This document shows positions 6,844 through 34,366 of a stretch of 36,463 nucleotides of DNA, piece by piece. The notes beneath the pieces are model-generated. The model saw nothing but the letters and a program-made list of their open reading frames with translations, was not told the origin of the DNA and made no database searches. Each line of letters opens with the position of its first letter. Position 1 is the first letter of the stretch. Origin of the DNA: a virus (Duplodnaviria; Caudoviricetes); the IMG/VR virus record IMGVR_UViG_3300037046_000017, positions 1-36,463 of that record, one strand, 5' to 3'. Made by a program: the position numbers and the translations under genes.

Positions 6844-6936
6844 ATGGACATCTGGGCCTATCTCGATCCGACCAAGATGGGGGTGCTGTGCGGCGGCCTG
6901 TTACTGGCCCTGTGGTCCTGGTGGCGCGAAAAGTAG
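6844..6936 (+). CDS. Putative leaderless 30-aa transmembrane peptide MDIWAYLDPTKMGVLCGGLLLALWSWWREK
   Basis: Read manually (below ORF-track cutoff); TAGCCT -10-like hexamer at 6832-37, 6 nt before ATG; single TM-like stretch with Trp/charged end. Confidence 0.5.
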   Translation: MDIWAYLDPTKMGVLCGGLLLALWSWWREK

Positions 6937-9069
6937 CGGCGAGGTGAGCAGCCCAGGCATGGGCAGCCCTGGCGCAGGCGCCGACGGCGCCAGCAGCCCA
7001 CGGCCCACGTTGCCCATCTGGCGCATCTGCAGGCCGCTGACGGTGCGCAGAAGCGGCGTAGCGGCCCAGTCGACAACAGGCAGGCCTGCCCCCCTCGTCA
7101 GCACATCCGACAGCCGGCCCAGCACCGTGGCGGCCGTGTTGCTGTTGTTGACCGCGCTGCCCATCGGCTGAGCCTGGATATGGCGGCCGACGTTGATGGC
7201 CGCCTTGATCTGCTGGATTTCCTCGGGGCCGAAGAAAAGCTCCATGCGCTGCGGTGTAAGCGACTCGAAGGCGTCCTGCATGCCCTTGGAGCTGAAGTTC
7301 GTGTGCGACACATCGGCCGACCCGCGCTTCATGATGTAGTCGAGCATCTGCTTGCGCACCGCCTGCAGCATGGCATCGTTCGTGCCGATCTCCTGGCGCA
7401 TCGACTGCAGGCCCTGCAGCGGCCCGTTGACCACATGCTTGCGCACGAAGCCGATGGGGTCGGCGCCGCTCAGGGCGTCCTCGATCCAGGGGGCCGATTC
7501 CTGCCACATGCGCCGCTGGCGCGCAGCGCCGCGCGCGGCATCGAAGGCGGCCAGCGCAGCCTTCGGCAGCGCATCCTGGCCCTGCAGGAACTTGGCGCCG
7601 GCCTCGGTCACAGCCTGCTGGCCGCCCATGTCGCGCTTGATCGGCTCGATGCCGACGTTCTCCAGCGCGTCGCGCACCGCCTTGATGGCGGCGCGGCCGT
7701 TGCCGTCGGCGCTGCGCGAGGCCGCCGCAAGCGTGGTCTTCAGCGAGTCGATGGTGTCGACGTTGAAGGGCACCTGGTGCACCTTGCCGCCGACCTTCAC
7801 CTCTCCGGCGGCGATCTGATTGAGCAGCGTGCCCACGTTCTCGGGGAGGAAGGCCGTCTTGTTGCTCTTGGCCAGGTTGCCGAAGGCCTCTTCGACGAAC
7901 GCGCCGCGCGCCAGCGGGATGTCGCGCCCGGCGGCGTCGCGCGCCGCCTTGTACAGGGCGTTCTCGGCGCCTTGCAGGGCCGCGTCCTTGCCCAGCGCCA
8001 TCGACAGCAGGCCCTGTCCGGTCTGCACGCTGTCCTGCGGCGACTTGGCCACGCCGCCCAGCGAGGCCAGCACCGACTTGGCGTTGGTGTTGGTGGTGTC
8101 GGCCAGGTCGGCGGCGCCGAAGAGACCGGTCTGGTTGGCCTGCTGCTTGGCCAGGTTGCGCTGCAGCGTGAGCGTGCGCGGGTTCTGCGTCACGTCGCCC
8201 AGCAGCGGCACCGAGCCCGGCACCTGGCGGAAGTCGGCCAGCCGGCCCAGCGCCTGGGTGTCGAGCGGCTTGCCGCCGACCACGAACTGGCCGGCGTCCT
8301 TGCGCAGCTGTTCCTTGGCCTGGTTGGAGAGCGCGGCCCAGTCGATTCCCGCCTTGCCGAGTTCGCGCTCTAGCGTCACGTCGATGTTCACGGCCGGCGC
8401 GCGCAGGCTGCGCAGCGCATCGAACACGCCGCGGCCGGCCTGGGCCAGCTTCTGCGCGCCGACTGCGCCGCCCATAGTTCCGGCCAGCGCGGCGCCGAAC
8501 TGGCCCCAAGGAGAAGCGCCACCTTGCTTGGCCGACTCGCCAGAGACGCCGCCTGCACCAGCACCAGCAAGTTGCACGGCCGGCTGCGCGGAGAACTGCT
8601 CGCCCATCATCTGCAGCAGCCCGGGAGCACGCTTGGCCAGCTGCTGCGCCACGCCGACGCTGCCGCCGGCGCTGGCCATCATCTTGGCGCCCGACTGTGC
8701 GGCGCGCTCGTCTGCGGACTGTGGCGCGGGCAGGCCCAGCAGATTGGCGATGGTCCTGCCGCCGTCTTCCATGGACGGCAGCGGTTGCGTGCCGGTGGCC
8801 CAGCTGAGTCCCTTGCGGACCGGGTTCCACGCGATGTCAGCGACGGCTGGCAGGCCCTCAAGGCCGGCGCGCGCCGTGAGGCCGGCCGCGCGGCCCACGC
8901 CGTTGACGTAGTTGGCGATGCTGCTGCCCTCGGCGGGCGCGGCCGACTGCGCAAGCCACTCCGAAGGCACCGCCATCCCGTTGCGCTGCAGCTTGGCGAC
9001 AAGGTCGGCCTTCGTTGTGCCTTCGGGCACGTTCTGGATGACGGTGCCGTCGGGCAGGCGCACGTCCAT
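6901..9069 (-). CDS. Large DNA ejection/internal virion protein
   Basis: 722 aa, Ala-rich helical; N-terminal DVRLPDGTVIQNVPEG motif; position at end of the podovirus structural cluster. Confidence 0.7.
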   Translation of the reverse strand: MDVRLPDGTVIQNVPEGTTKADLVAKLQRNGMAVPSEWLAQSAAPAEGSSIANYVNGVGRAAGLTARAGLEGLPAVADIAWNPVRKGLSWATGTQPLPSMEDGGRTIANLLGLPAPQSADERAAQSGAKMMASAGGSVGVAQQLAKRAPGLLQMMGEQFSAQPAVQLAGAGAGGVSGESAKQGGASPWGQFGAALAGTMGGAVGAQKLAQAGRGVFDALRSLRAPAVNIDVTLERELGKAGIDWAALSNQAKEQLRKDAGQFVVGGKPLDTQALGRLADFRQVPGSVPLLGDVTQNPRTLTLQRNLAKQQANQTGLFGAADLADTTNTNAKSVLASLGGVAKSPQDSVQTGQGLLSMALGKDAALQGAENALYKAARDAAGRDIPLARGAFVEEAFGNLAKSNKTAFLPENVGTLLNQIAAGEVKVGGKVHQVPFNVDTIDSLKTTLAAASRSADGNGRAAIKAVRDALENVGIEPIKRDMGGQQAVTEAGAKFLQGQDALPKAALAAFDAARGAARQRRMWQESAPWIEDALSGADPIGFVRKHVVNGPLQGLQSMRQEIGTNDAMLQAVRKQMLDYIMKRGSADVSHTNFSSKGMQDAFESLTPQRMELFFGPEEIQQIKAAINVGRHIQAQPMGSAVNNSNTAATVLGRLSDVLTRGAGLPVVDWAATPLLRTVSGLQMRQMGNVGRGLLAPSAPAPGLPMPGLLTSPLLFAPPGPQGQ

Positions 9070-10331
9070 TACTTCAGGCTCCCGAAGTCAACGATGCCAG
9101 AGCGCCCAGCCGGCGCCGGTGCCCATGGCGACAGCGGCGGGCCACCAGAGCCCGGGCGATTGCTGGCGTACTTGTCGCCGAGCCGCCGCAGTTCGGCCGC
9201 TGCCGCGGCCTTGATGGCGTATGGCACCGTGTCGTCTCCGATCTGCGCTGCCATCTGCCGGTACATGGCCACGTCCTTGTCGGACTGCGGGCCTTCCATG
9301 CGCGGCTGGGCCATCATCAGCCGCCCCTCCAGCACGCGCAGGCGCCCCGCCGCGATGGACCCGTCAGTCGCCGCGCCGAAGACCTGGCCCAGCATGTCCA
9401 GAGCCTTGCCGCCGTAGCTGCCCGTCGAGTCCTTCAGCAGCGGTTCGGCCTGGTCGAGGATGGCATTGACGCGCTCGGCGGAGACGTTGTCCTTCGTGGG
9501 CCCGCCAACGGGGATGCCATTGACCTGCGCCTGCGGCCCGACGATCTGCGTGGGCATCGCGCGCTTGCTGCCATCGGGCATGTCGATGTACTGCACGCGG
9601 GTGCCGGCGAGATCGCGCTCGCGCTTGTCGGTGATGCCGGCCACGCCGAACTGCGTCCGGGAGCTGAGCTGCGCGTCCGGGCTCGCCCCCATCTGGAAGG
9701 TGGCGCCGCTGGGCGTGGCGTTCTTGTCGATGGCCAGGACGCGGTTGCCCAGGTTCTGCATGACCATGTCGGGCTTCGTGCCGTAGGGCGCCACCTTCGT
9801 CGTGCCGTCCTCGAAGACGAACACGTTCAGCGCCTTGCCGGTGGCCGGGTCGGTCATCACCTGCACGTCCTTGATCTTGGGCTGTTCCTTCTTCATCGAC
9901 AGCTGCATCTGCATCGCCGCCGGCGGATCGATGGCGGCCAGGCCGTTGGCGTAGCCGGCCCAGTCGAAGCCGGCCGGCGTCTGCCCGGTGGCCGACGCAT
10001 TGGCCGCGGCGATGGTGGGGCCGCCGTGCTGCTGCATCGCCATCTGCTGCGGGCTGCGCGCGCTGCGCTGGGCCAGCTCCTGCAGCTGCTGCTGACGCAG
10101 CTGCGCCTGTTGCGCCTGGCTGAGCTGCATCTCCTGCATCTTGCGCTGCAGGTTTTGCTGTTCCCGCTGTGACTTCTGCTGCGCCGCCTGCTGGTAGCCC
10201 AGCAGCCCCTGCTGTCCGCCCTGCGCCAGCGACTGCGCGAAGTTCCCGCGCGAGCCGAGCAGGCCCAGCCCGAGCTGTAGCAGCCCCTGCGTATGCGGGT
10301 CGTCGAATTCCGTGCCGAGAGAGAGACCCAT
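9069..10331 (-). CDS. DNA ejection/internal virion protein
   Basis: Start MGLSLG; N-terminal hydrophobic GLLQLGLGLLG then Gln-rich coiled coil. Confidence 0.7.
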   Translation of the reverse strand: MGLSLGTEFDDPHTQGLLQLGLGLLGSRGNFAQSLAQGGQQGLLGYQQAAQQKSQREQQNLQRKMQEMQLSQAQQAQLRQQQLQELAQRSARSPQQMAMQQHGGPTIAAANASATGQTPAGFDWAGYANGLAAIDPPAAMQMQLSMKKEQPKIKDVQVMTDPATGKALNVFVFEDGTTKVAPYGTKPDMVMQNLGNRVLAIDKNATPSGATFQMGASPDAQLSSRTQFGVAGITDKRERDLAGTRVQYIDMPDGSKRAMPTQIVGPQAQVNGIPVGGPTKDNVSAERVNAILDQAEPLLKDSTGSYGGKALDMLGQVFGAATDGSIAAGRLRVLEGRLMMAQPRMEGPQSDKDVAMYRQMAAQIGDDTVPYAIKAAAAAELRRLGDKYASNRPGSGGPPLSPWAPAPAGRSGIVDFGSLK

Positions 10332-10332
10332 G

Positions 10333-11946
10333 TCAGCCCCTGTTGAAGTAGCGGCCCGCGCCGTTGTTGGCGCGCGCCTGGATGGCGCCCGGGATGTCCA
10401 GCGCAGGCTGCTGCCATGGTTGCGCCTGGGGCTGGATGCCCATCTGCAGGCCGGTAGTCCACTGCACCGGCTCGCCGGTGAAGGTCTGCGCGCCGCCACC
10501 GCCACCCGAGCCGCTCTCGGCCCCCATGTAGCCCAGCAGGCCGCCGGCGCCGCTGAAAATCATGCGGGCAAGCTGCGGGTTCTGCCTGATCCACGACGCG
10601 GCAGGCCCGAACATCTCGCCCAGCGCGTCGACGCCGCTGGCAGCGCCGGCCGCGGCGTTGGCCAGGCCCGGGCTGCCCGTGGCGTTGACCACGGCGTCAT
10701 AGGCTCCGGTCTGGGTGCCGCTCATGCCCTCGCCGTAGTTGTCGCTCGGCCTGTAGGGTGTTGCACTGGGCGTCGTCGTTGGGAGCGCCGCAGGAAGTGC
10801 CGCCACTTCTGGCAAGGAAAGCGGCGCGGCCGGTGTTATCCCTGCCGCAGCGTTCGTAGGCAGGGACGCCACCTGTGCCGGGACTTCAGGAATCGAGCCG
10901 AGCGACGCCAGGCCACTGCCGGCCAGCGAAGCGACCTCGGGTAGCGTCGGTGCTACGGCCTGCGTGATGCCCGCCTGGGCCATCGATGGCAGGCTGGCCA
11001 CCTGCTGCACCGCCGCCGGCTCGATCGTGCCCAGTGTGCCAAGTCCGGATCCGGCGCCACTTGCTGCACCAGCGCCAGCCGCCGCGCCGGACGACGCGCC
11101 AGGGAGGAAGGATGCGCCCACCGCGGGGAGGCTGCTGCCGATGCCAGCGCCGATGCCGGACGCGGCCAGCGCAGCCTCTGCGCTGCCGATGCCTAGCCCG
11201 GCACCTGTGCCGACCAGGCCGCCCGTCGCGCCCATGCTGCCGAACTGCGCCCCGGTCAGGGCGTATGGGGAGGATGCCGCGGCGCCGCTGCCTGCCGAAA
11301 CGCCGCCCATGCTCAGCCCGCTGCCGCCGGCGACACTGCCGCCCGTAGCTGCACCGGTGGCGCCAGCCCCGCCGATGGCGCCCGTCGCGACGCCTGCTCC
11401 GACGCCGGCTCCAGCCAGGAGGGCGGCCGTCCAGAAGTTCGGGTCGGCGTTGCTGTAGTCCTGCGCGCTACCGATCAGCCCGCCGTTGGCGTCCTCGGCC
11501 CACACGCGACCACCTCCGCCGTGCGCGGCGCTGCGCAGGCTGTAGCCGTTCTGCTGGAGGTACTGCTGCAACAGTTCTGGGTTGATGCCTGCGGCGCTGG
11601 TGTCGTCGCCGCCGGGTGAGGCCCGGTAGAAGGCCTCCATGCCGGGCACGCCAGCGAACACCTGGGAAAAGATCGAGTCGCGATAGGAGTTCTGCGTGCT
11701 CGTGTCGTCTCCACCCTGCCCCGTCTGGAAGAAGAACGGGCTGGCCATGGGGTCGACGTTGCCGCCATCCCACCAGCCGGACGGAATCATCCCCGAGGAC
11801 GATGGCTGTGCAGGCGCCTGCATGGGAGCTGCGGCGGGAGCCGGGGCCTGGACGCCACCCCCCATGCTCAACCCGCCCGCGGGCGCCGAGTAGGGCGCGG
11901 CTTCGCCGCCGTACTGCTCTTCAAGCCAATCGAGGATGCTCCTCAT
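10333..11946 (-). CDS. Gly/Ala-rich ejection-type virion protein with hydrophobic segments
   Basis: 537 aa low complexity, TM-like ALLAGAGVGAGVATGAIG, internal VASLP repeats. Confidence 0.65.
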   Translation of the reverse strand: MRSILDWLEEQYGGEAAPYSAPAGGLSMGGGVQAPAPAAAPMQAPAQPSSSGMIPSGWWDGGNVDPMASPFFFQTGQGGDDTSTQNSYRDSIFSQVFAGVPGMEAFYRASPGGDDTSAAGINPELLQQYLQQNGYSLRSAAHGGGGRVWAEDANGGLIGSAQDYSNADPNFWTAALLAGAGVGAGVATGAIGGAGATGAATGGSVAGGSGLSMGGVSAGSGAAASSPYALTGAQFGSMGATGGLVGTGAGLGIGSAEAALAASGIGAGIGSSLPAVGASFLPGASSGAAAGAGAASGAGSGLGTLGTIEPAAVQQVASLPSMAQAGITQAVAPTLPEVASLAGSGLASLGSIPEVPAQVASLPTNAAAGITPAAPLSLPEVAALPAALPTTTPSATPYRPSDNYGEGMSGTQTGAYDAVVNATGSPGLANAAAGAASGVDALGEMFGPAASWIRQNPQLARMIFSGAGGLLGYMGAESGSGGGGGAQTFTGEPVQWTTGLQMGIQPQAQPWQQPALDIPGAIQARANNGAGRYFNRG

Positions 11947-11950
11947 CGGA

Positions 11951-13549
11951 TCAACCCCCGCCGCCCAGCAGCTGCATCAGCTGCGCGAAAGTGAGCGCGC
12001 CACCCAGGCCGGCGGCCAGCGGGTTCTGCCCGGGCTGCTGCTGCGTCGTCGTGCTGCCCGGGTTGAACGCGCCCAGCGCGCGCCCCATCACGTCGAGCTG
12101 CTGCTGCGGGTAGGCGCGCGACTCCTGGAATCGACGGTATTCGTCGTTCATCTGGGCCTGGTTCTGGCCCTGGTACGCGCCGCCGGCGTTGATGAGCTGG
12201 TTGATGTCGTTGTAGTCCGACTGCGCGAACTGCGGCGCCAGGCCAAGCGACTGCAGCATGCGGTTCTGGTTGCCCTGGTACATCGAGTCGTTGCGCTGCG
12301 CCCAGTCCTGGCCCTGCCCGGCGTTGAACTGCTGGGCCTGCATCTGCCGGATCAGGTTGTTGTCCATCGTTCCGGAGTTGAACTGCTGGGCCTGCATGCT
12401 GCGGCCAGCTGCAGACTCGCCAAGGCCGGCATTGAACTGCTGCTCCTGCAGGCCGCGATTCGCCGCCGCCTCGCCCAGGCCGGCGTTGAACTGACCGGCC
12501 TGCATCTGGCGGCCAAGGTTCGACTCCAGAAGTCCGGCGTTGAACTGCTGGGCCTGCATCCCGCGGTTTGCTGAGGCTTCGCCGAGCCCGGCATTGAACT
12601 GCCCGGCCTGGAACTGCCGGTTCAGGTTCTCGCTGTTGACGCCGGAGTTGAACCGTTGCGCATCCATCGAGCGGCCGGCGGCAGACTCGCTCAGCCCGGC
12701 ATTGAACTGCGCCAGGCCCAGCGATCGGCCAATGTTGTTCTCTTCGATCCCGGTGTTGAACTGCTGCGCCTGCATGCTTCGATTCAGGGCGTTCTCCGCC
12801 AGCTGCTGCTGCTGCGAATAGTCCTGGAACCGCATGCGGCTACCGATGTCGCCGAGGTTCTTCTGCAGGTCGCTGACGCCCTGCTCAGCCATCGACTTAA
12901 CGTTGGCGTTGCCGAAGCTGCCAGACCGTGACATGGCCGTGTCGAAGCCCGGCATCTGCACGTTGTTCCAGTTGCGGATCACGTCCTGCTGCGAGTTGTC
13001 GATCTGGCTTTGCAGATACGGGTTGTCCATGCTCGCGTACTGGTTCTGGCCAGGCTGGACTTGCATCGAGTTGCGGGTGTCGACGCTGATCGGGCTGGTG
13101 GCGCTGGACTGCACCATCATGTCGTTCCACCCGGACGAGACAGGGGCGCCGCCCTGCCCAGGCTGCACCATCGTATCGTTCCACCCGGAGTCGATGAACT
13201 GCCCGCCGGGGCCAGCCCGCACCGGCTGCCCGCCTTGGCCGGCCTGCACCATCATGTCGTTCTGGCCTGCCTGGACCTGGCCGTAGGGGTTCTGCGTGGC
13301 GCCCTGCTGCTGGGAGCCCCACATGTTCTGCAGCTGCTGCTGCGCGCCGCCCATAAGCGGCGAGCCGTCGGCCGCGCGCTGCGCCAGCGCCTGGTAGCCC
13401 TGCTGCTGCCACGGCGTGAAGCCGGCGACCGTCTGGCCCTGGTAGGCCTGATACGGCATGTTGGCGACGTTCTGCGCCTGCTGCATGTAGCCCTGCGCGT
13501 AGGGCTGCACCCATGCGGGCATGCTGGTCGAAGAGGTGTAGTCAGCCAT
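11951..13549 (-). CDS. Pilot/ejection-type protein with paired repeat arrays
   Basis: Start MADYTSSTSMPAWVQPY; Gln-rich; C-terminal LAAGLGGALTFAQL; first gene after nozzle-associated genes. Confidence 0.75.
   Translation of the reverse strand: MADYTSSTSMPAWVQPYAQGYMQQAQNVANMPYQAYQGQTVAGFTPWQQQGYQALAQRAADGSPLMGGAQQQLQNMWGSQQQGATQNPYGQVQAGQNDMMVQAGQGGQPVRAGPGGQFIDSGWNDTMVQPGQGGAPVSSGWNDMMVQSSATSPISVDTRNSMQVQPGQNQYASMDNPYLQSQIDNSQQDVIRNWNNVQMPGFDTAMSRSGSFGNANVKSMAEQGVSDLQKNLGDIGSRMRFQDYSQQQQLAENALNRSMQAQQFNTGIEENNIGRSLGLAQFNAGLSESAAGRSMDAQRFNSGVNSENLNRQFQAGQFNAGLGEASANRGMQAQQFNAGLLESNLGRQMQAGQFNAGLGEAAANRGLQEQQFNAGLGESAAGRSMQAQQFNSGTMDNNLIRQMQAQQFNAGQGQDWAQRNDSMYQGNQNRMLQSLGLAPQFAQSDYNDINQLINAGGAYQGQNQAQMNDEYRRFQESRAYPQQQLDVMGRALGAFNPGSTTTQQQPGQNPLAAGLGGALTFAQLMQLLGGGG
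12317..12802 (-). repeat. Nine tandem 54-bp (18-aa) repeats, consensus LxExxxxRxMQAQQFNAG
   Basis: Nine exact-period units counted in the translation. Confidence 0.9.
13037..13279 (-). repeat. Nine tandem 27-bp (9-aa) degenerate repeats, xVQxGx(N/G)xx
   Basis: QVQAGQNDM MVQAGQGGQ PVRAGPGGQ FIDSGWNDT MVQPGQGGA PVSSGWNDM MVQSSATSP ISVDTRNSM QVQPGQNQY. Confidence 0.75.
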
Positions 13550-13551
13550 GT

Positions 13552-13872
13552 TCAGTTCCCCGTCAGAAAACGCATCTGCACCCAGGTGCCTGGCGTGCCG
13601 GAGGCGACGCACTTCCAGCCCTGGATCACGTACTTGTTCGGCGATGTTCCGAGTTCGGTCGGCGCCGTGTTGAAGATTTCGTCGCCCTGCTGCCACCTTC
13701 CGGTGGTCGGCGCCGCGGTGCGCCCGTTGTCCCGCCCGGAGGCCAGTCCGTCGCCGAGCTGGTTGGCCTTGACGGCGATCGCGCGAAGCAGCCTGCTCAG
13801 AGCCACCTGCAAGTCCCGGTCATAGGCGCTCTCTGGCTTGGAGCCCAGCGCGATCTGTTCAGGCACTTTCAT
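13552..13872 (-). CDS. Small tail-associated protein (needle/fibre-knob-like)
   Basis: N-terminal helix plus PTTGRWQQGD...GWKCVASGTPGTW beta motif seen in tail appendage proteins. Confidence 0.6.
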   Translation of the reverse strand: MKVPEQIALGSKPESAYDRDLQVALSRLLRAIAVKANQLGDGLASGRDNGRTAAPTTGRWQQGDEIFNTAPTELGTSPNKYVIQGWKCVASGTPGTWVQMRFLTGN

Positions 13873-15308
13873 CGCGAGCCCGCCGCCTTAAATTCCACGC
13901 CGATCGAGTCGAACTTCGAATCCCGAGGCGGCGACACGGTGACCTTGTGCCACCGCCCAGTCGTTCGCAGGTGATAGCCGCCGTTTCTCAGGGGCGCTTG
14001 CGGCGTGGTGTTGGCGGCGATGTTCGTTCCCGCGTAAGGGTAGGTCCTGGCATAGGCGTAGCTGGCGTCCGCAGCGGCGCTGTTCTGGATGATGCCGAGA
14101 CGAACCTCGGTGAGCGCAGTCGCTCTCTGGGCGTCACCGATCAGCGCTGTCGAGAACTCGCGGTCCTGGATCAGGCTCCTCGGAATATGCAGGGTGTTCG
14201 GCGATGCGGAGTTGGGCAAGGACATCACGATGCCGGTGTACGCGCTCAGTCCGTCATACCTGACGTCGGAGAACACCTTGAATGGCCGCTCTGCGCCGGT
14301 GAACTTGACCTTTCCCCAAGTCCCGCTGCTGGGGTGATACACCATCGCGATCATGTCGGTGAGGCCGCTGAATCCGACGGAGGTGTCGATGAAGAACCAA
14401 ATCCGCTCTTCGGCCCGGTCGCTGACGGCGCAGTGCCTTGACGATGAACTGACCTGAAGCCCGTCACCGTCGAAGCAAACGGAGTAGTTCTTCTTGACCC
14501 ATGCCCAGATGTCGAGTCCGATCAGGTCAACCCGCGCGCCGTCGAACCTGTAGAACCCGTCAGGGCCCATGAAGTAGTGCGCCTGGTTGTACTCGCACAC
14601 CGCCTCGGGCTGTAGCGCACCTTGATTGCCGGGTACGCGATCCCACTGCCACACGGCGGCGCCGCCGACGTAGCTTCCCAGCCAGAGCGCCTTTCGCTTG
14701 TACGCGACGGCCTGCCTGCCGAGAGCAAGCCCTGCGGTCAGAGGTCCGCCAACGTCCCGCAGCTGGCCGCGGTTGGCCTGAGTGCTGACGCTGGGAGCCC
14801 ACGTGGTGTAGTCGAAGATGCCGCAGCACCACCACGCATCTGGCTGGTCTCCATAGGTGCCGTCATTGGTGTTCAGCGCCATCACGAAGTCGCCCACGGC
14901 GAACACTATCCGAGCCTTCGGCGAGGCGGCAATGTCGGCGAAGGTCGCGCCCGTGAACGCCTGGATAGGGTCGATCCGGTTCGACGCGAGGATCACGTCG
15001 CCGTACTGCGCAAAGGACCATGGCCCAGTAGCGCCGTAATTGGCCACGCGACCCACGTCGGTCCACGTGGAGTAGTCGGTCTTGTAGAGGCGAAGCCCTG
15101 CGGAGGCGAAGATTCGCTTCTGCTCGGCGTCGGTCGGGTAGGCGACCCCATAGCCGACCGCGCTCGGCGCAGATGTGCTGCTCGACAGCGGATGAGGAGC
15201 GTTCTGAAAGCCTCCGACGCATGGGATGACGCCATCGCAGTCGATCATCGCCCCAGGCGTCCCGGCTGGGGCCAGCGGCATGAATCCTCGAAGCGGCATC
15301 ATCTCCAC
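13869..15308 (-). CDS. Tail nozzle/head-stabilisation protein (P22 gp10 or tubular-B analogue)
   Basis: 479 aa beta-rich (WSFAQYGD...), follows the adaptor gene. Confidence 0.75.
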   Translation of the reverse strand: MEMMPLRGFMPLAPAGTPGAMIDCDGVIPCVGGFQNAPHPLSSSTSAPSAVGYGVAYPTDAEQKRIFASAGLRLYKTDYSTWTDVGRVANYGATGPWSFAQYGDVILASNRIDPIQAFTGATFADIAASPKARIVFAVGDFVMALNTNDGTYGDQPDAWWCCGIFDYTTWAPSVSTQANRGQLRDVGGPLTAGLALGRQAVAYKRKALWLGSYVGGAAVWQWDRVPGNQGALQPEAVCEYNQAHYFMGPDGFYRFDGARVDLIGLDIWAWVKKNYSVCFDGDGLQVSSSSRHCAVSDRAEERIWFFIDTSVGFSGLTDMIAMVYHPSSGTWGKVKFTGAERPFKVFSDVRYDGLSAYTGIVMSLPNSASPNTLHIPRSLIQDREFSTALIGDAQRATALTEVRLGIIQNSAAADASYAYARTYPYAGTNIAANTTPQAPLRNGGYHLRTTGRWHKVTVSPPRDSKFDSIGVEFKAAGSR

Positions 15309-19330: not shown

Positions 19331-19458
19331 GATTCGGTGATCTCCGTTTCCCACGCCGCGAGCGCCTCGGCGATGAGTGGATTTTCGAGCGCGGCCGCGG
19401 CGTGCGATCCGCGCTCGAGCTCGACGTGAGCCGGCGTCGGCTCGATGGGGTTGCTCAT
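19150..19458 (-). CDS. Small helical head-assembly-region protein
   Basis: ERGSHAAAALENPLI...WKTSPLRDVEGRE...ETGQL pattern, of a type usually found just after portal genes. Confidence 0.8.
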   Translation of the reverse strand: MSNPIEPTPAHVELERGSHAAAALENPLIAEALAAWETEITESWKTSPLRDVEGREKMRLMLEAAQVFRRHLLRTMETGQLQRVQMQQQRTWLERVKSVGRQ

Positions 19459-21791
19459 AGGGAACCGATCCCGCTGTCTGCGTATGTCAGTTGGGGGCCC
19501 GCCGTGCCGTGCAGGGTGCCGATGCTGTCGAAGGTGTTCCCGTCGAGCTTGTAGCGGTGCTGCATGCCGGCCGGCACGATGCCGTTGCGGATGTAGTCGA
19601 TCACCATCTGCGTGGTGAGCGTGAAGCCCTTGCCGAACATGAAGTCGCCGAGGTCACACTGCGCGTTGGACCCTGAGCCGTCGCTGTTCGAGAAGAGGAA
19701 AAGCGCGCGGTCGGTGGCGCCGGTAGCAGCCAGAGCCGTGTAGCCGATGCGCCCCACCACCAGGCCGTCGACCCAGATCGTGGCGTGCTGCTTGTTGTCG
19801 GCCCCCAGCGCGGCGTTGAGCGTTCCGTCCCAGCACACCGCGATGTGGTGCGCATCGTTGACGTACATCTTCGTCGGGTCGGCTTCGAGGTTGCTCGGGT
19901 AGGTGAACGACGAGAGGTCGTGCGAGACATAGGCCGCGTTCAGCAGCTGGTAGAACTTGAAGCCCTCATTGCCCTGCAGCGTGGCCAGCCAGCCATTCAC
20001 GCCGTTGTCGCAGGCGAAGATGCGCGCGCCGGTGCTGAACGGCGCCGTCTTGCGGAACCAGAACATCCAGGCCATCTTCGAAGTGCTGGGCGTGGCCAGC
20101 GAGATGTCAGGATGGTTCGGGATCGACACGTGGGAGCCCACGACGCCCGTGCCGCGCCCCCACACCTTGGGCACCAGGAAGGCGCCAGGCTCAGGGTACG
20201 GGGCCGGCGGGGCAACGAAGCCGGCCGACAGCGACGCATTGACGTTGCGGATGATCGACATCACCGCGAGACGCTGGGTCTTCAGGTCGCTGGGTCCGGT
20301 GCCGCCGACGGCTGCCGTGACGTACCAGCTCCAGTCCGCCACGAGCTCGACGCCGGCGCTGAAGCACTTGTTGAACGAGTCCCGCGAGAGAAGTCCGACC
20401 TCGCGCCCGCTGTAGGCCGTCGCGTCGTCGTCTGCGCCGCACTCCTCGACCATCAGCACCTTGCCGGCCTGGTATGCAGCGTTGCGCAGGACGGGAATCA
20501 GCACGTCGGCGCCACCGATGTCGGCACCGATGAAGCAGTGAGCGAAGCCTGACCGGTCGGTGTCGGGGTAGAGGTGGAAAGCGACGATGTCGCAGGCGCC
20601 GGCAGAGTACAACCACTTGCGGACGAACTCCTGCAGCTGGCCGCCTTCGAAGCGGCCATTGGTGCCATGCGGCGCCACGACAGAGCGGTCGTTGTCCCAC
20701 TGGCGGATGGCCGCCACGATCTCGGTGCAGATGTCGGCCAGGAACTTGAGGTGGTCTACGGCGGTGTCCGTGGAGACCGTGGCGAACTGCGCCAGGCTGG
20801 CGATGTCGAACCACTCGTTTCCGACGTTGTACGCCGCCAGCGCCGGGTGCTTGTACAGGCTCTTGGCCAGGAATCCGGCCAGGTTGGTCATGTACGCGCG
20901 ACTGGCGGACCCCGGTGTCTGGTACTGCGCCACCGTCGCCGAAAGCACCGCGGGCACCGTGGCGTAACCCCAGAACATGCACAGCTCGACGCCCACGCCG
21001 TAGGCCCAGCAGGTATCCAGGAAAATGCGCAGGCTGGTCAGCAGGTTGGCGTTTGGCGCGGCACCGTTCGTGCCGATGGTGCTGGTCCACGTGGCCGCGT
21101 TGTTCGGGTGGCCGAGCGACACGCGGATGATCTTCACTCCATAGCTGGAGATGGTCGGCAAGTCCGTGTAGAACCAGGCGCGCTGCACCGTTCCGCCGGA
21201 TGTGTACGTCGTGAATGCCGTGGTGTTCACGGGCACGCCGGCCATCGTCTTCACCGTGAAGGTGGTGCCTGTCGGAGCGGTGTTGACGAGGTAGTAGCCG
21301 GCCAGCTGCGTCATGCCACCGATGCCGGCGATGTACACCGGATCGTTCACCGCCAGGCCGTGAGCCGCGCTCGTCGTGACGACACCAGGGTTGGCCTTGG
21401 TCACCGCCGTGACGCTGAAGGCCAGCAGGAAGTCGAAGAACAGGTCGACGGCGTTGATGAACACGCCGCGGTAGTCGCGGCCACCCACCAGCAGCCTGCC
21501 GTCCAGCGTCGTGATTTTGCGGCTGGCCAGCGCAGGCTGAGACGCGCGCGCAACACCCTGGGTCACGAGCGCCGGGTCCGTGGAAAACTCGTAGTAGAGG
21601 CCGCCGCGCACTGCGGTCAGCCGCACAGATCCGGCCTTCACGTCGAGCGCCACGCCACCGCCGGCGCCCTCCCAGAGCAGCGCTCCCGAGAAAGTGATGA
21701 GCGTGGCGTGCCCGCCTGCGTTCTGCACCACCAGCGTGGAATCAACCTGACTAATGAGGTCGACGAACTGTCCTTGCGTGAGGCTTGGCAT
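19455..21791 (-). CDS. Virion-associated glycoside hydrolase (GH5/clan GH-A-like) with inserted tail-type domain and C-terminal LamG/ConA-like domain
   Basis: GVKIIRV, YNVGNEW (acid/base), VAFHLYP, VLMVEECG (nucleophile), ADWSW; C-terminal HHIAVCWDG...IWVDG LamG pattern. Confidence 0.8.
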   Translation of the reverse strand: MPSLTQGQFVDLISQVDSTLVVQNAGGHATLITFSGALLWEGAGGGVALDVKAGSVRLTAVRGGLYYEFSTDPALVTQGVARASQPALASRKITTLDGRLLVGGRDYRGVFINAVDLFFDFLLAFSVTAVTKANPGVVTTSAAHGLAVNDPVYIAGIGGMTQLAGYYLVNTAPTGTTFTVKTMAGVPVNTTAFTTYTSGGTVQRAWFYTDLPTISSYGVKIIRVSLGHPNNAATWTSTIGTNGAAPNANLLTSLRIFLDTCWAYGVGVELCMFWGYATVPAVLSATVAQYQTPGSASRAYMTNLAGFLAKSLYKHPALAAYNVGNEWFDIASLAQFATVSTDTAVDHLKFLADICTEIVAAIRQWDNDRSVVAPHGTNGRFEGGQLQEFVRKWLYSAGACDIVAFHLYPDTDRSGFAHCFIGADIGGADVLIPVLRNAAYQAGKVLMVEECGADDDATAYSGREVGLLSRDSFNKCFSAGVELVADWSWYVTAAVGGTGPSDLKTQRLAVMSIIRNVNASLSAGFVAPPAPYPEPGAFLVPKVWGRGTGVVGSHVSIPNHPDISLATPSTSKMAWMFWFRKTAPFSTGARIFACDNGVNGWLATLQGNEGFKFYQLLNAAYVSHDLSSFTYPSNLEADPTKMYVNDAHHIAVCWDGTLNAALGADNKQHATIWVDGLVVGRIGYTALAATGATDRALFLFSNSDGSGSNAQCDLGDFMFGKGFTLTTQMVIDYIRNGIVPAGMQHRYKLDGNTFDSIGTLHGTAGPQLTYADSGIGSL

Positions 21792-33409: not shown

Positions 33410-34366
33410 ATGGCAGCGAAGAAGAAGGCCGCAGCCGAGGCCACGGGGCAGGTTGCCCAAGCCGCACAGCCGGCGTCGGTCATCGTGGCCTACAAGGGCT
33501 TCAACACCGACTGGACGTGCCGCGGCTTCCAGTACGAGATCGGCAAGAGCTACGAGCACGACGGCGAAGTCCACGCGTGCAACAGCGGCTTCCACGCCTG
33601 CGAGCATCCGCTGCACGTGCTGAGGTACTACCGGCCGGCGTTCTCGAAGTTCGCGATCGTCGAGCAATCCGGCGAGGTCAGCCGCCACGCTGACGACAGC
33701 AAGGTCGCCAGCTCGCGCATCGCGGTCAAGGCCGAGATCGACATCGCAGGCCTGGTGAAGGCGGCGATCAAGTACACGATGGACCGCTGCACGCTTGCCG
33801 ATGGCGCGAGTAGCGATCAGGACAATGCGTCGGTCGCGACGGGGGGCAAGAACAAGTCGGCCACGGCGAGCGGCTACTCCGGCGCGGCCACGGCGAGCGG
33901 CGACTCCGGCGCGGCCACGGCGAGCGGCTCCTACGGCGCGGCCACGGCGAGCGGCGACTCCGGCGCGGCCACGGCGAGCGGCTACTCCGGCGCGGCCACG
34001 GCGAGCGGCGACTCCGGCGCGGCCACGGCGAGCGGCGAATCCGGCGCGGCCACGGCGAGCGGCTCCTACGGCGCGGCCACGGCGAGCGGCTCCTACGGCG
34101 CGGCCACGGCGAGCGGCTCCTACGGCGCGGCCACGGCGAGCGGCGACTCCGGCGCGGCCACGGCGAGCGGCTACTCCGGCGCGGCCACGGCGAGCGGCAG
34201 AAACGGCAAAGCCAGGGGCGCCATCGGCTGCGCGATCTTCCTGACCCGTCGCGACCTTAATCGTGCCATCACGCACGTCTATGCCGGCATCGTTGGCCAG
34301 GGCGGCATCAAGCCGGACACGTTCTACACGCTGGACGGCAGCGGCGCGCCGGTGGAGGTGGGGTGA
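33410..34366 (+). CDS. DUF7666-like phage protein with 9-aa Gly/Ser/Ala repeats
   Basis: AYKGF...CRGFQYEIG...CNSGFHACEHPL N-domain; IKPDTFYTL C-terminal motif. Confidence 0.85.
   Translation: MAAKKKAAAEATGQVAQAAQPASVIVAYKGFNTDWTCRGFQYEIGKSYEHDGEVHACNSGFHACEHPLHVLRYYRPAFSKFAIVEQSGEVSRHADDSKVASSRIAVKAEIDIAGLVKAAIKYTMDRCTLADGASSDQDNASVATGGKNKSATASGYSGAATASGDSGAATASGSYGAATASGDSGAATASGYSGAATASGDSGAATASGESGAATASGSYGAATASGSYGAATASGSYGAATASGDSGAATASGYSGAATASGRNGKARGAIGCAIFLTRRDLNRAITHVYAGIVGQGGIKPDTFYTLDGSGAPVEVG
33860..34198 (+). repeat. 12.5 tandem 27-bp repeats GCCACGGCGAGCGGC-N6-GGCGCG
   Basis: Invariant 21 nt; variable hexamer TACTCC/GACTCC/TCCTAC/GAATCC. Confidence 0.95.

Follow-up and report, generated by a model that had tools for sequence, protein, structure and literature searches.

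Mirror-ordered repeat arrays that change length together in a phage ejection protein, and a possible channel of variable reach

Several described proteins provide a frame for the one reported here. In phage P22, gp7* is ejected first and folds back with its fingertip docked in the tail hub, and it forms a dodecameric extracellular channel with its C-terminal helices in the outer membrane, as described in the available part of a preprint (10.64898/2026.09.03.749273). The SU10 proteins gp20 to gp24 are found in virions and are gone after genome release, according to the part of the SU10 report at hand (PMC9509320). The accessible portions of two further sources describe chemoreceptor signalling domains as hairpins of 12 to 32 paired heptads with paired indels about the tip (PMC6628036), and protein H of phiX174 as a Gln/Asn-rich helical tube with 7- and 11-residue units that serves genome passage (PMC7354561). 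Here we describe P0001, an ejection protein encoded in IMG/VR virus record IMGVR_UViG_3300037046_000017; the window that we analysed is the complete 36,463-base record, in which direct terminal repeats are present. P0001 carries two arrays of unlike repeats on either side of a core, and in its homologues these arrays expand and contract together.

The arrays in P0001 (Table 1) are exactly as a first-pass annotation of the window had set them out: nine 9-residue units (13279-13037), nine 18-residue units (12802-12317) and 78 residues between them. That annotation had also proposed that the two arrays mirror each other, because the seventh residues of successive 9-mers are N,G,G,N,G,N,T,N,N and the sixth residues of the 18-mers, taken in reverse order, are L,A,A,L,A,L,A,I,L. 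Both readings are confirmed on the sequence, but the odds attached to their agreement (1 of 126) were overstated because the columns were picked post hoc: at least one perfect binary split arose in 43% of 20,000 random unit orders. Whole-unit similarity is a better test than a single-column match, and it favours mirror order. The similarity matrices of the two arrays correlate in mirror order both for DNA (r = 0.73, P = 0.0002) and for protein (r = 0.53, P = 0.004), with values of -0.16 and -0.01, respectively, in parallel order; perfect column splits number five in mirror order and zero in parallel order. The 9-mers with Trp are units 4 and 6, as are the 18-mers with QAGQFN, a pattern that is symmetric and therefore cannot distinguish mirror from parallel order. 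The 18-mers have two apolar stripes, an invariant Arg8 and Asn16, and many Gln residues, and the Gln+Asn content of P0001 is 27%. An inverted repeat at the DNA level was considered and rejected: the longest word that the arrays share with reverse complementation is only 9 bases.

Evidence that the two arms belong together comes from their lengths in other proteins. Our pool of 258 proteins consisted of P0001, the best 120 of 235 matches and the best 150 of 1553; 252 of the pooled proteins are longer than 200 residues, and 179 of them cleared five anchor thresholds. N-arm and C-arm lengths are almost perfectly correlated (rho = 0.977 in these 179 of 252 proteins; rho = 0.966 with looser anchors, which admit 224 of 252), and the distance between the core anchors is 73 residues in 172 of the 179. 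No other segment length rises with arm length in the homologue set. At the level of loci, 91 distinct genes from 159 loci, a set that partly overlaps the protein pool, give rho = 0.987. Independent contrasts calculated on a 169-tip tree of the non-repeat blocks give r = 0.97. There are 56 sister pairs: in all 35 that have changed, the two arms shift alike, and in the other 21 the N-arm difference is at most 2 residues. The C arm differs by up to 165 residues between sister lineages.

Up to a length of 60 the C arm takes 14 distinct values, every one of the form 1+7a+11b, to which only half of the integers in that range conform, and we therefore take the C arm to grow by whole helical turns (steps of 7, 11 or 18). 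The annotation had predicted equal unit counts and mirrored variants in homologues, and both were found. Among 91 proteins of the 18-mer type, the counts are equal in 89, with the N arm parsed blind to the C count; since 48 of the 91 have one unit, the more telling figure is that of the multi-unit proteins, in which counts are equal in 41 of 43. One of the two unequal cases is a parse failure and the other is a different repeat type. A second module matches 7 residues with 11; of 17 proteins with it that were selected by eye, 16 show the coupling, and the module reaches 14 units. The natural length series thus extends from zero to nine 18-residue units, or to fourteen 11-residue units, and most homologues carry zero to two. 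A search for much longer forms (553-2000 residues) found six proteins–among them one known long 7:11 form, several with long unrelated extensions and one bearing an S74 domain–which is weak evidence that such forms are absent.

Mirror order also holds outside P0001. In the other proteins, cross-tabulating Asn or non-Asn at position 7 of the N-arm unit (N7) against an aliphatic or non-aliphatic residue at position 6 of its C-arm partner (C6) gives counts of 79/37/1/26 in mirror pairing (odds ratio 55, P = 3 x 10−10) and 67/49/13/14 in parallel pairing (odds ratio 1.5, P = 0.40). The rule formulated on P0001 survives in one direction: non-Asn units face non-aliphatic residues in 26 of 27 cases, but Asn faces Leu, Ile, Val or Met in only 79 of 116. 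The suggested size compensation between Trp and Gly does not generalize, as it is seen in 4 of 9 Trp units beyond P0001, all four of them in its two nearest kin. For paired units, mutual information has a Z-score of 13.8 in the mirror register and about 4.4 when the register is shifted by one unit. The map of the columns concerned runs along an anti-diagonal (N1-C17/18, N2-C12, N5-C9/10, N7-C6 and N9-C5/C2), with a slope of roughly two helix residues per strand residue.

A further line of evidence is independent of the repeats. We computed mean-field covariation on the non-repeat blocks of 239 sequences (effective number 155). Of the top 60 covarying pairs, 33 join the N-block to the C-block and 16 join the two core helices (49 of 60 together), and both groups are antiparallel (rho = -0.90 and -0.88, respectively). 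The anti-diagonals run from 182-241 to 206-214 in the core and from 76-431 to 14-488 outside the arrays, so that the arrays are bracketed on either side by the antiparallel pairs 76-431 and 182-241. The bracketed gap is about 104 residues on one side and 189 on the other, and pairing therefore requires the N side to be extended; the implied rise there has a median of 2.9 Å per residue in 84 long homologues. Together, the mirror-register mutual information, the anti-diagonal column map and the covariation support the earlier proposal of an antiparallel fold-back with one 9-mer per 18-mer. An AlphaFold2 model agrees with part of it: the core is a helical hairpin, residues 79-176 have no helix, and residues 6-8 and 501-503 are strands.

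Several results weigh against an in-register hairpin, or limit what can be read from the statistics. The predicted zipper itself does not appear with confidence in the AlphaFold2 model of P0001 (pTM 0.34), in which most residues of the 9-mer array and some of those in the 18-mer array have pLDDT below 50, and the model of a one-unit homologue is poorer (pLDDT 55). Covariation is blind to whether contacts lie within a chain or between chains. Mirror order outscores parallel order in only 11 of 18 individual proteins, and by that measure P0003 scores better in parallel. Mutual information in parallel pairing also exceeds that of all shuffles, likely because many arrays alternate. The mirror and parallel tables become identical once terminal units are left out together with the two nearest kin, and unit pairs share ancestry and are not phylogenetically independent. 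In the 7:11 type mirror order is weak (combined P = 0.008; 1 of 9 proteins below 0.05). Finally, 3 of 224 proteins break the length coupling: P0139, which has four surplus 7-mers in its N arm, P0147, which has a surplus C arm, and P0255. Surplus C units among the unbalanced homologues are 22 residues long. These three are possibly evolutionary intermediates or defective genes. Weighing all this, we consider an in-register strand-on-helix hairpin well supported and very probably correct. Structure comparisons were uninformative: a Foldseek search with the P0001 model gave no match, and VIA-align matches over residues 168-252 (best Z 9.3) were set aside as generic helical hairpins that name no family.

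The family to which P0001 belongs accords with the earlier view of it as an ejection-type protein. P0001 matches phrog_4287 ('DNA ejection protein') weakly (E = 7 x 10−5), and the same family was matched by 17 of 17 shorter homologues tested, 16 of them more strongly than by P0001. SU10 gp21 and gp22 both fall in phrog_4287, and a profile built from 41 short homologues scored 94.3% against gp21 and 97.9% against gp22 over 260-270 columns. On these matches, P0001 is a member of the phrog_4287 / SU10 gp21-gp22 ejection protein family. P0001 itself has no match among annotated phage genomes, solved-structure sequences or Pfam, and neither P22 gp20 nor SU10 gp20 aligns to its family. Its gene follows the nozzle gene within an SU10-type structural module, and a nozzle match lies upstream of the ejection gene in 88 of the 90 other loci listed. 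A second core-bearing gene was not found in the 91 loci.

We propose that this hairpin probably serves as an extracellular DNA channel between the nozzle and the outer membrane. Geometry suggests that one extended unit of 9-10 residues (about 3 Å per residue) would cover each 18-residue helical unit (27 Å), and that in other lineages a 7-residue extended unit would cover an 11-residue one. By the precedent of P22 gp7*, several copies would oligomerize after ejection, the invariant turn would dock in the nozzle, the Gln/Asn-rich helices would line the tube with the extended arm bracing them, and the Gly-rich C-terminal tail would insert in the outer membrane. Each added matched pair should make the channel about 2.7 nm longer with both ends unchanged, and an unmatched unit would loop out or expose bare helix, which is presumably selected against. 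At 1.5 Å per residue, the end-to-end helix is estimated at about 15 nm in a repeat-free form and about 42 nm in P0001. The same arithmetic upholds the 24 nm given earlier for the array, but the accompanying word 'ruler' is loose, because the hairpin is likely to be the length-bearing structure itself. A paired change could arise by slippage if the surplus in one arm is borne for a short time as a loop until the other arm catches up (P0139 may be at this stage), or by a double crossover between relatives that swaps nested layers.

The placement of the stalk follows from its layout. Covariation and the modelled core put the turn at one end of P0001 and both termini, with the tail, at the other, as in gp7, and we therefore place the stalk between nozzle and outer membrane; by this comparison the variable stalk is likelier than not to be extracellular. 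A Gly-rich hydrophobic tail is present in 141 of 179 homologues. Tails occur without a leader in 139 of 179, and 26 of 179 (P0040, P0062 and P0101 among them) lack a tail but have an N-terminal leader that closes with a Gly run; the two termini share one end of the hairpin. More tentatively, and with somewhat less than an even chance of being right, we suggest that selection fits the length to the stand-off distance of a particular host surface.

Other observations count against the channel or against its tuning. Placement and orientation are argued by analogy because the core has no sequence homology to P22 gp7: core and short-form profiles scored 0.2% and 0.1%, respectively, against an 8-sequence gp7 alignment. 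The hydrophobic tail is missing from 38 of 179 homologues. None of nine tests of neighbour-gene length against C-arm length survives correction (smallest P = 0.015), and the lengths of the nozzle gene, the 106-residue neighbour and the downstream genes do not track the arrays. In the eight measurable loci from named genomes, C arms are 19-55 residues long, compared to 181 in P0001.

It is unlikely, but the least unlikely of the alternatives, that the same hairpin is present with its length untuned: slippage and recombination would let the arms drift, folding alone would enforce the match, and any length above a minimum would work. No neighbour or host feature follows array length, sister lineages differ as widely as noted above (up to 165 C-arm residues), and five Pseudomonas prophage loci span C-arm lengths 30 and 48, all as expected of drift. 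Set against this, the finding that most homologues have no more than two units hints that length is costly, and long forms arose repeatedly from different modules; both points are only suggestive.

A stalk that lies below the outer membrane and spans the periplasm, or a hairpin inverted so that its turn points into the cell, is a considerably poorer prospect. The estimated 42 nm far exceeds the roughly 6 nm gap between hub and cell surface in P22 and is near the 36-50 nm of the whole channel, going by the part of the P22 source available; protein H, a Gln/Asn-lined tube of heptads and hendecads, crosses the cell wall, as the accessible text on phiX174 has it (PMC7354561); and tailless homologues (38 of 179) would suit such a location. 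On the other hand, the hydrophobic tail, where it exists, is at the far end from the invariant turn and is similar to gp7's outer-membrane segment, and a constant-length gene of about 400 residues follows, like gp20 in P22. Hosts seen in the 12 loci from named genomes are mostly Proteobacteria, and a proteobacterial periplasm is not expected to differ threefold.

We regard as improbable a trimeric needle or fibre, in which a three-helix coiled coil with extended arms in its grooves would act as a probe or plug with no tube. The Peptidase_S74 domain is known from trimeric fibres, and a C-terminal motif of this type occurs in 10 of 224 homologues (P0082, P0102, P0105, P0110, P0141, P0144, P0156, P0158, P0201 and P0247), but a Pfam scan found no such domain in P0001. 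The two apolar stripes of the 18-mer would fit a coiled coil; its invariant Arg8 and Asn16 and many Gln residues suit a barrel at least as well, and the Gly-rich hydrophobic tail of 141 of 179 homologues also counts against a fibre. The SU10 homologues exit the particle upon genome release, on the available part of that report (PMC9509320), which does not favour a fibre. Chance, a DNA hairpin and an assembly artefact can each be dismissed as the origin of the mirror match because the arms are coupled across homologues: although the 9/9 match in a single column is not significant once column choice is allowed for (43%), equal counts, mirror statistics, covariation and agreeing contigs all speak for a real feature.

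The virus is an SU10-like temperate podovirus with a complete genome; family scans identified genes for an integrase, terminase, SU10-type portal, capsid, adaptor and a nozzle of phrog_3287 in the window. The P0001 gene starts at ATG 13549, a start shared by homologues, and is two genes past the nozzle gene and the first among four large genes. It occurs in groundwater metagenome runs, four of which contain at least half of the sampled words, one of them possibly the source. A single contig of that run spans the gene without difference and pieces from the three other runs are identical, so with contigs of four runs agreeing there is no sign of an assembly artefact. Unit-number variants of the gene were absent from the contigs of these runs, in which rare variants are dropped. 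The single joint listed in the run contigs was discarded, as it belongs to an unrelated contig and has 22-base sides.

Table 1. Features of the P0001 gene and its neighbours; positions refer to the window, residues to P0001.
Feature	Position	Strand	Basis
Ejection protein gene, P0001, 532 aa, phrog_4287 / SU10 gp21-gp22 family	11951..13549	-	family matches
Conserved N-terminal arm, residues 1-90; covaries antiparallel with residues 431-492	13280..13549	-	
Array of nine 9-aa Gly/Pro/Gln/Asn-rich units, residues 91-171; probable extended strand	13037..13279	-	
Length-invariant core, residues 172-249 (78 aa), two antiparallel helices; putative nozzle-docking tip	12803..13036	-	
SRSGSFGN turn joining the two core helices	12908-12931	-	
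Array of nine 18-aa units, residues 250-411; predicted helix, five turns per unit	12317..12802	-	
Conserved C-terminal helix with hydrophobic Gly-rich tail at its end	11954..12316	-	
Hydrophobic Gly-rich tail, about residues 510-530; putative outer-membrane anchor	11960-12022	-	
Nozzle gene, phrog_3287 (SU10 gp17 matches the same family), constant length; putative docking partner	13869..15308	-	
106-aa ORF between nozzle and ejection genes; weak tail-fibre matches; length independent of the arrays	13552..13872	-	
Three next genes (537, about 420 and 722 aa); putative further ejection proteins	6901..11946	-	position

Some other features of the window and family deserve mention. The 537-residue gene at 10333-11946 (- strand) is Gly/Ala-rich with several imperfect PEV-type repeats; its counterparts in related loci have 400-540 residues, and a family scan of its product gave no match. 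P0107, P0210, P0259, P0260 and P0262 have a long N-terminal extension, partly Gly/Ala-rich, that by eye recalls this product, but phmmer found no match between them. Right after the portal gene, a 778-residue gene at 19455-21791 (- strand) has an FCCH-like / phrog_584 stretch at residues 125-217, followed by what we take by eye, from motifs and with no database match, to be a glycoside-hydrolase-like region and a lectin-like C-terminus. None of the other 90 loci, of which many end short of that region, contains a homologue of the gene. Its product is possibly a virion depolymerase, which may be relevant to why a long stalk is needed. A 27-base tandem array (12.6 copies, 94% matches) lies at 33858-34198 within a 472-residue ORF that has no family match.

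The protein family and the hairpin channel are already known, as are paired indels at a hairpin tip and amide-lined tubes of 7- and 11-residue units. In the literature that we searched, which lies mostly outside subscription papers and does not extend to the supplement of the P22 preprint (which may compare the lengths of gp7 homologues), we found no ejection protein described as having two arrays of unlike repeats that are mirror-coded and expand together, and for the terms searched the accessible text of a review of ejection proteins (PMC8954989) yielded nothing on such repeats. We tentatively suggest that a widespread podovirus family may set the reach of its channel by a two-part code, in which each helical unit (7, 11 or 18 residues) has an extended unit of matching sequence across an invariant nozzle-docking turn. 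If so, different lineages have rebuilt a telescoping stalk from different modules to span 15 to more than 40 nm of host surface, and the repeat count reads out a stand-off distance that could be reprogrammed in 2.7 nm steps. The question of how short-tailed phages bridge the gap from tail to outer membrane, and fit it to their hosts, becomes directly testable in this family, which is a natural length series with both ends constant. The family also poses an evolutionary puzzle, in that unrelated arrays 78 residues apart change together and just 3 of 224 proteins are out of step. For design, it provides a rule by which strand-braced helical tubes could be made extendable.

The closest relatives of P0001 among known systems are SU10 gp21 and gp22, which have profile homology over most of the family's repeat-free form. 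The two phages have common portal, capsid, adaptor and nozzle families, and the ejection genes lie in the same gene region. SU10 differs in having two paralogues, which align to the short form without long arrays. P22 gp7* is similar in being the product of the first ejection gene by position, in its fold-back chain and in its Gly-rich hydrophobic C-terminus, and some P0001 homologues share with gp7 an N-terminal leader ending in a Gly run, as far as the available P22 text goes. Sequence links are slight: the gp7 tail aligns with the family tail over 43 columns, a low-complexity match; a language-model lead reached only 0.89; and Pfam scans of the P0001 family gave no match to PF25688. By the same partial source, gp7* has 229 residues and both of its arms are helical, whereas the N arm of P0001 must be extended over the arrays, having about half as many residues as the C arm; also unlike gp7*, the P0001 family varies in length in steps.

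Chemoreceptors resemble P0001 in that both arms gain or lose units pairwise around an invariant tip, but in the portion of the source available they use one kind of helical heptad, whereas the P0001 family pairs unrelated units (9:18 or 7:11) with mirrored variants. PhiX174 H shares with P0001 its Gln/Asn richness and the steps of 7 and 11 seen in the C arm; it differs, on the accessible account, in having a single parallel helix per subunit with no fold-back arm, and it belongs to an unrelated virus group. In tape-measure proteins and the needle rulers of type III secretion, repeat number likewise maps to physical length, but those rulers gauge the polymerization of another subunit. The scan of 29 ORFs in the window identified no tail-tube gene. 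Unlike those rulers, P0001 is likely to be the length-bearing structure itself, and it needs two matched arrays.
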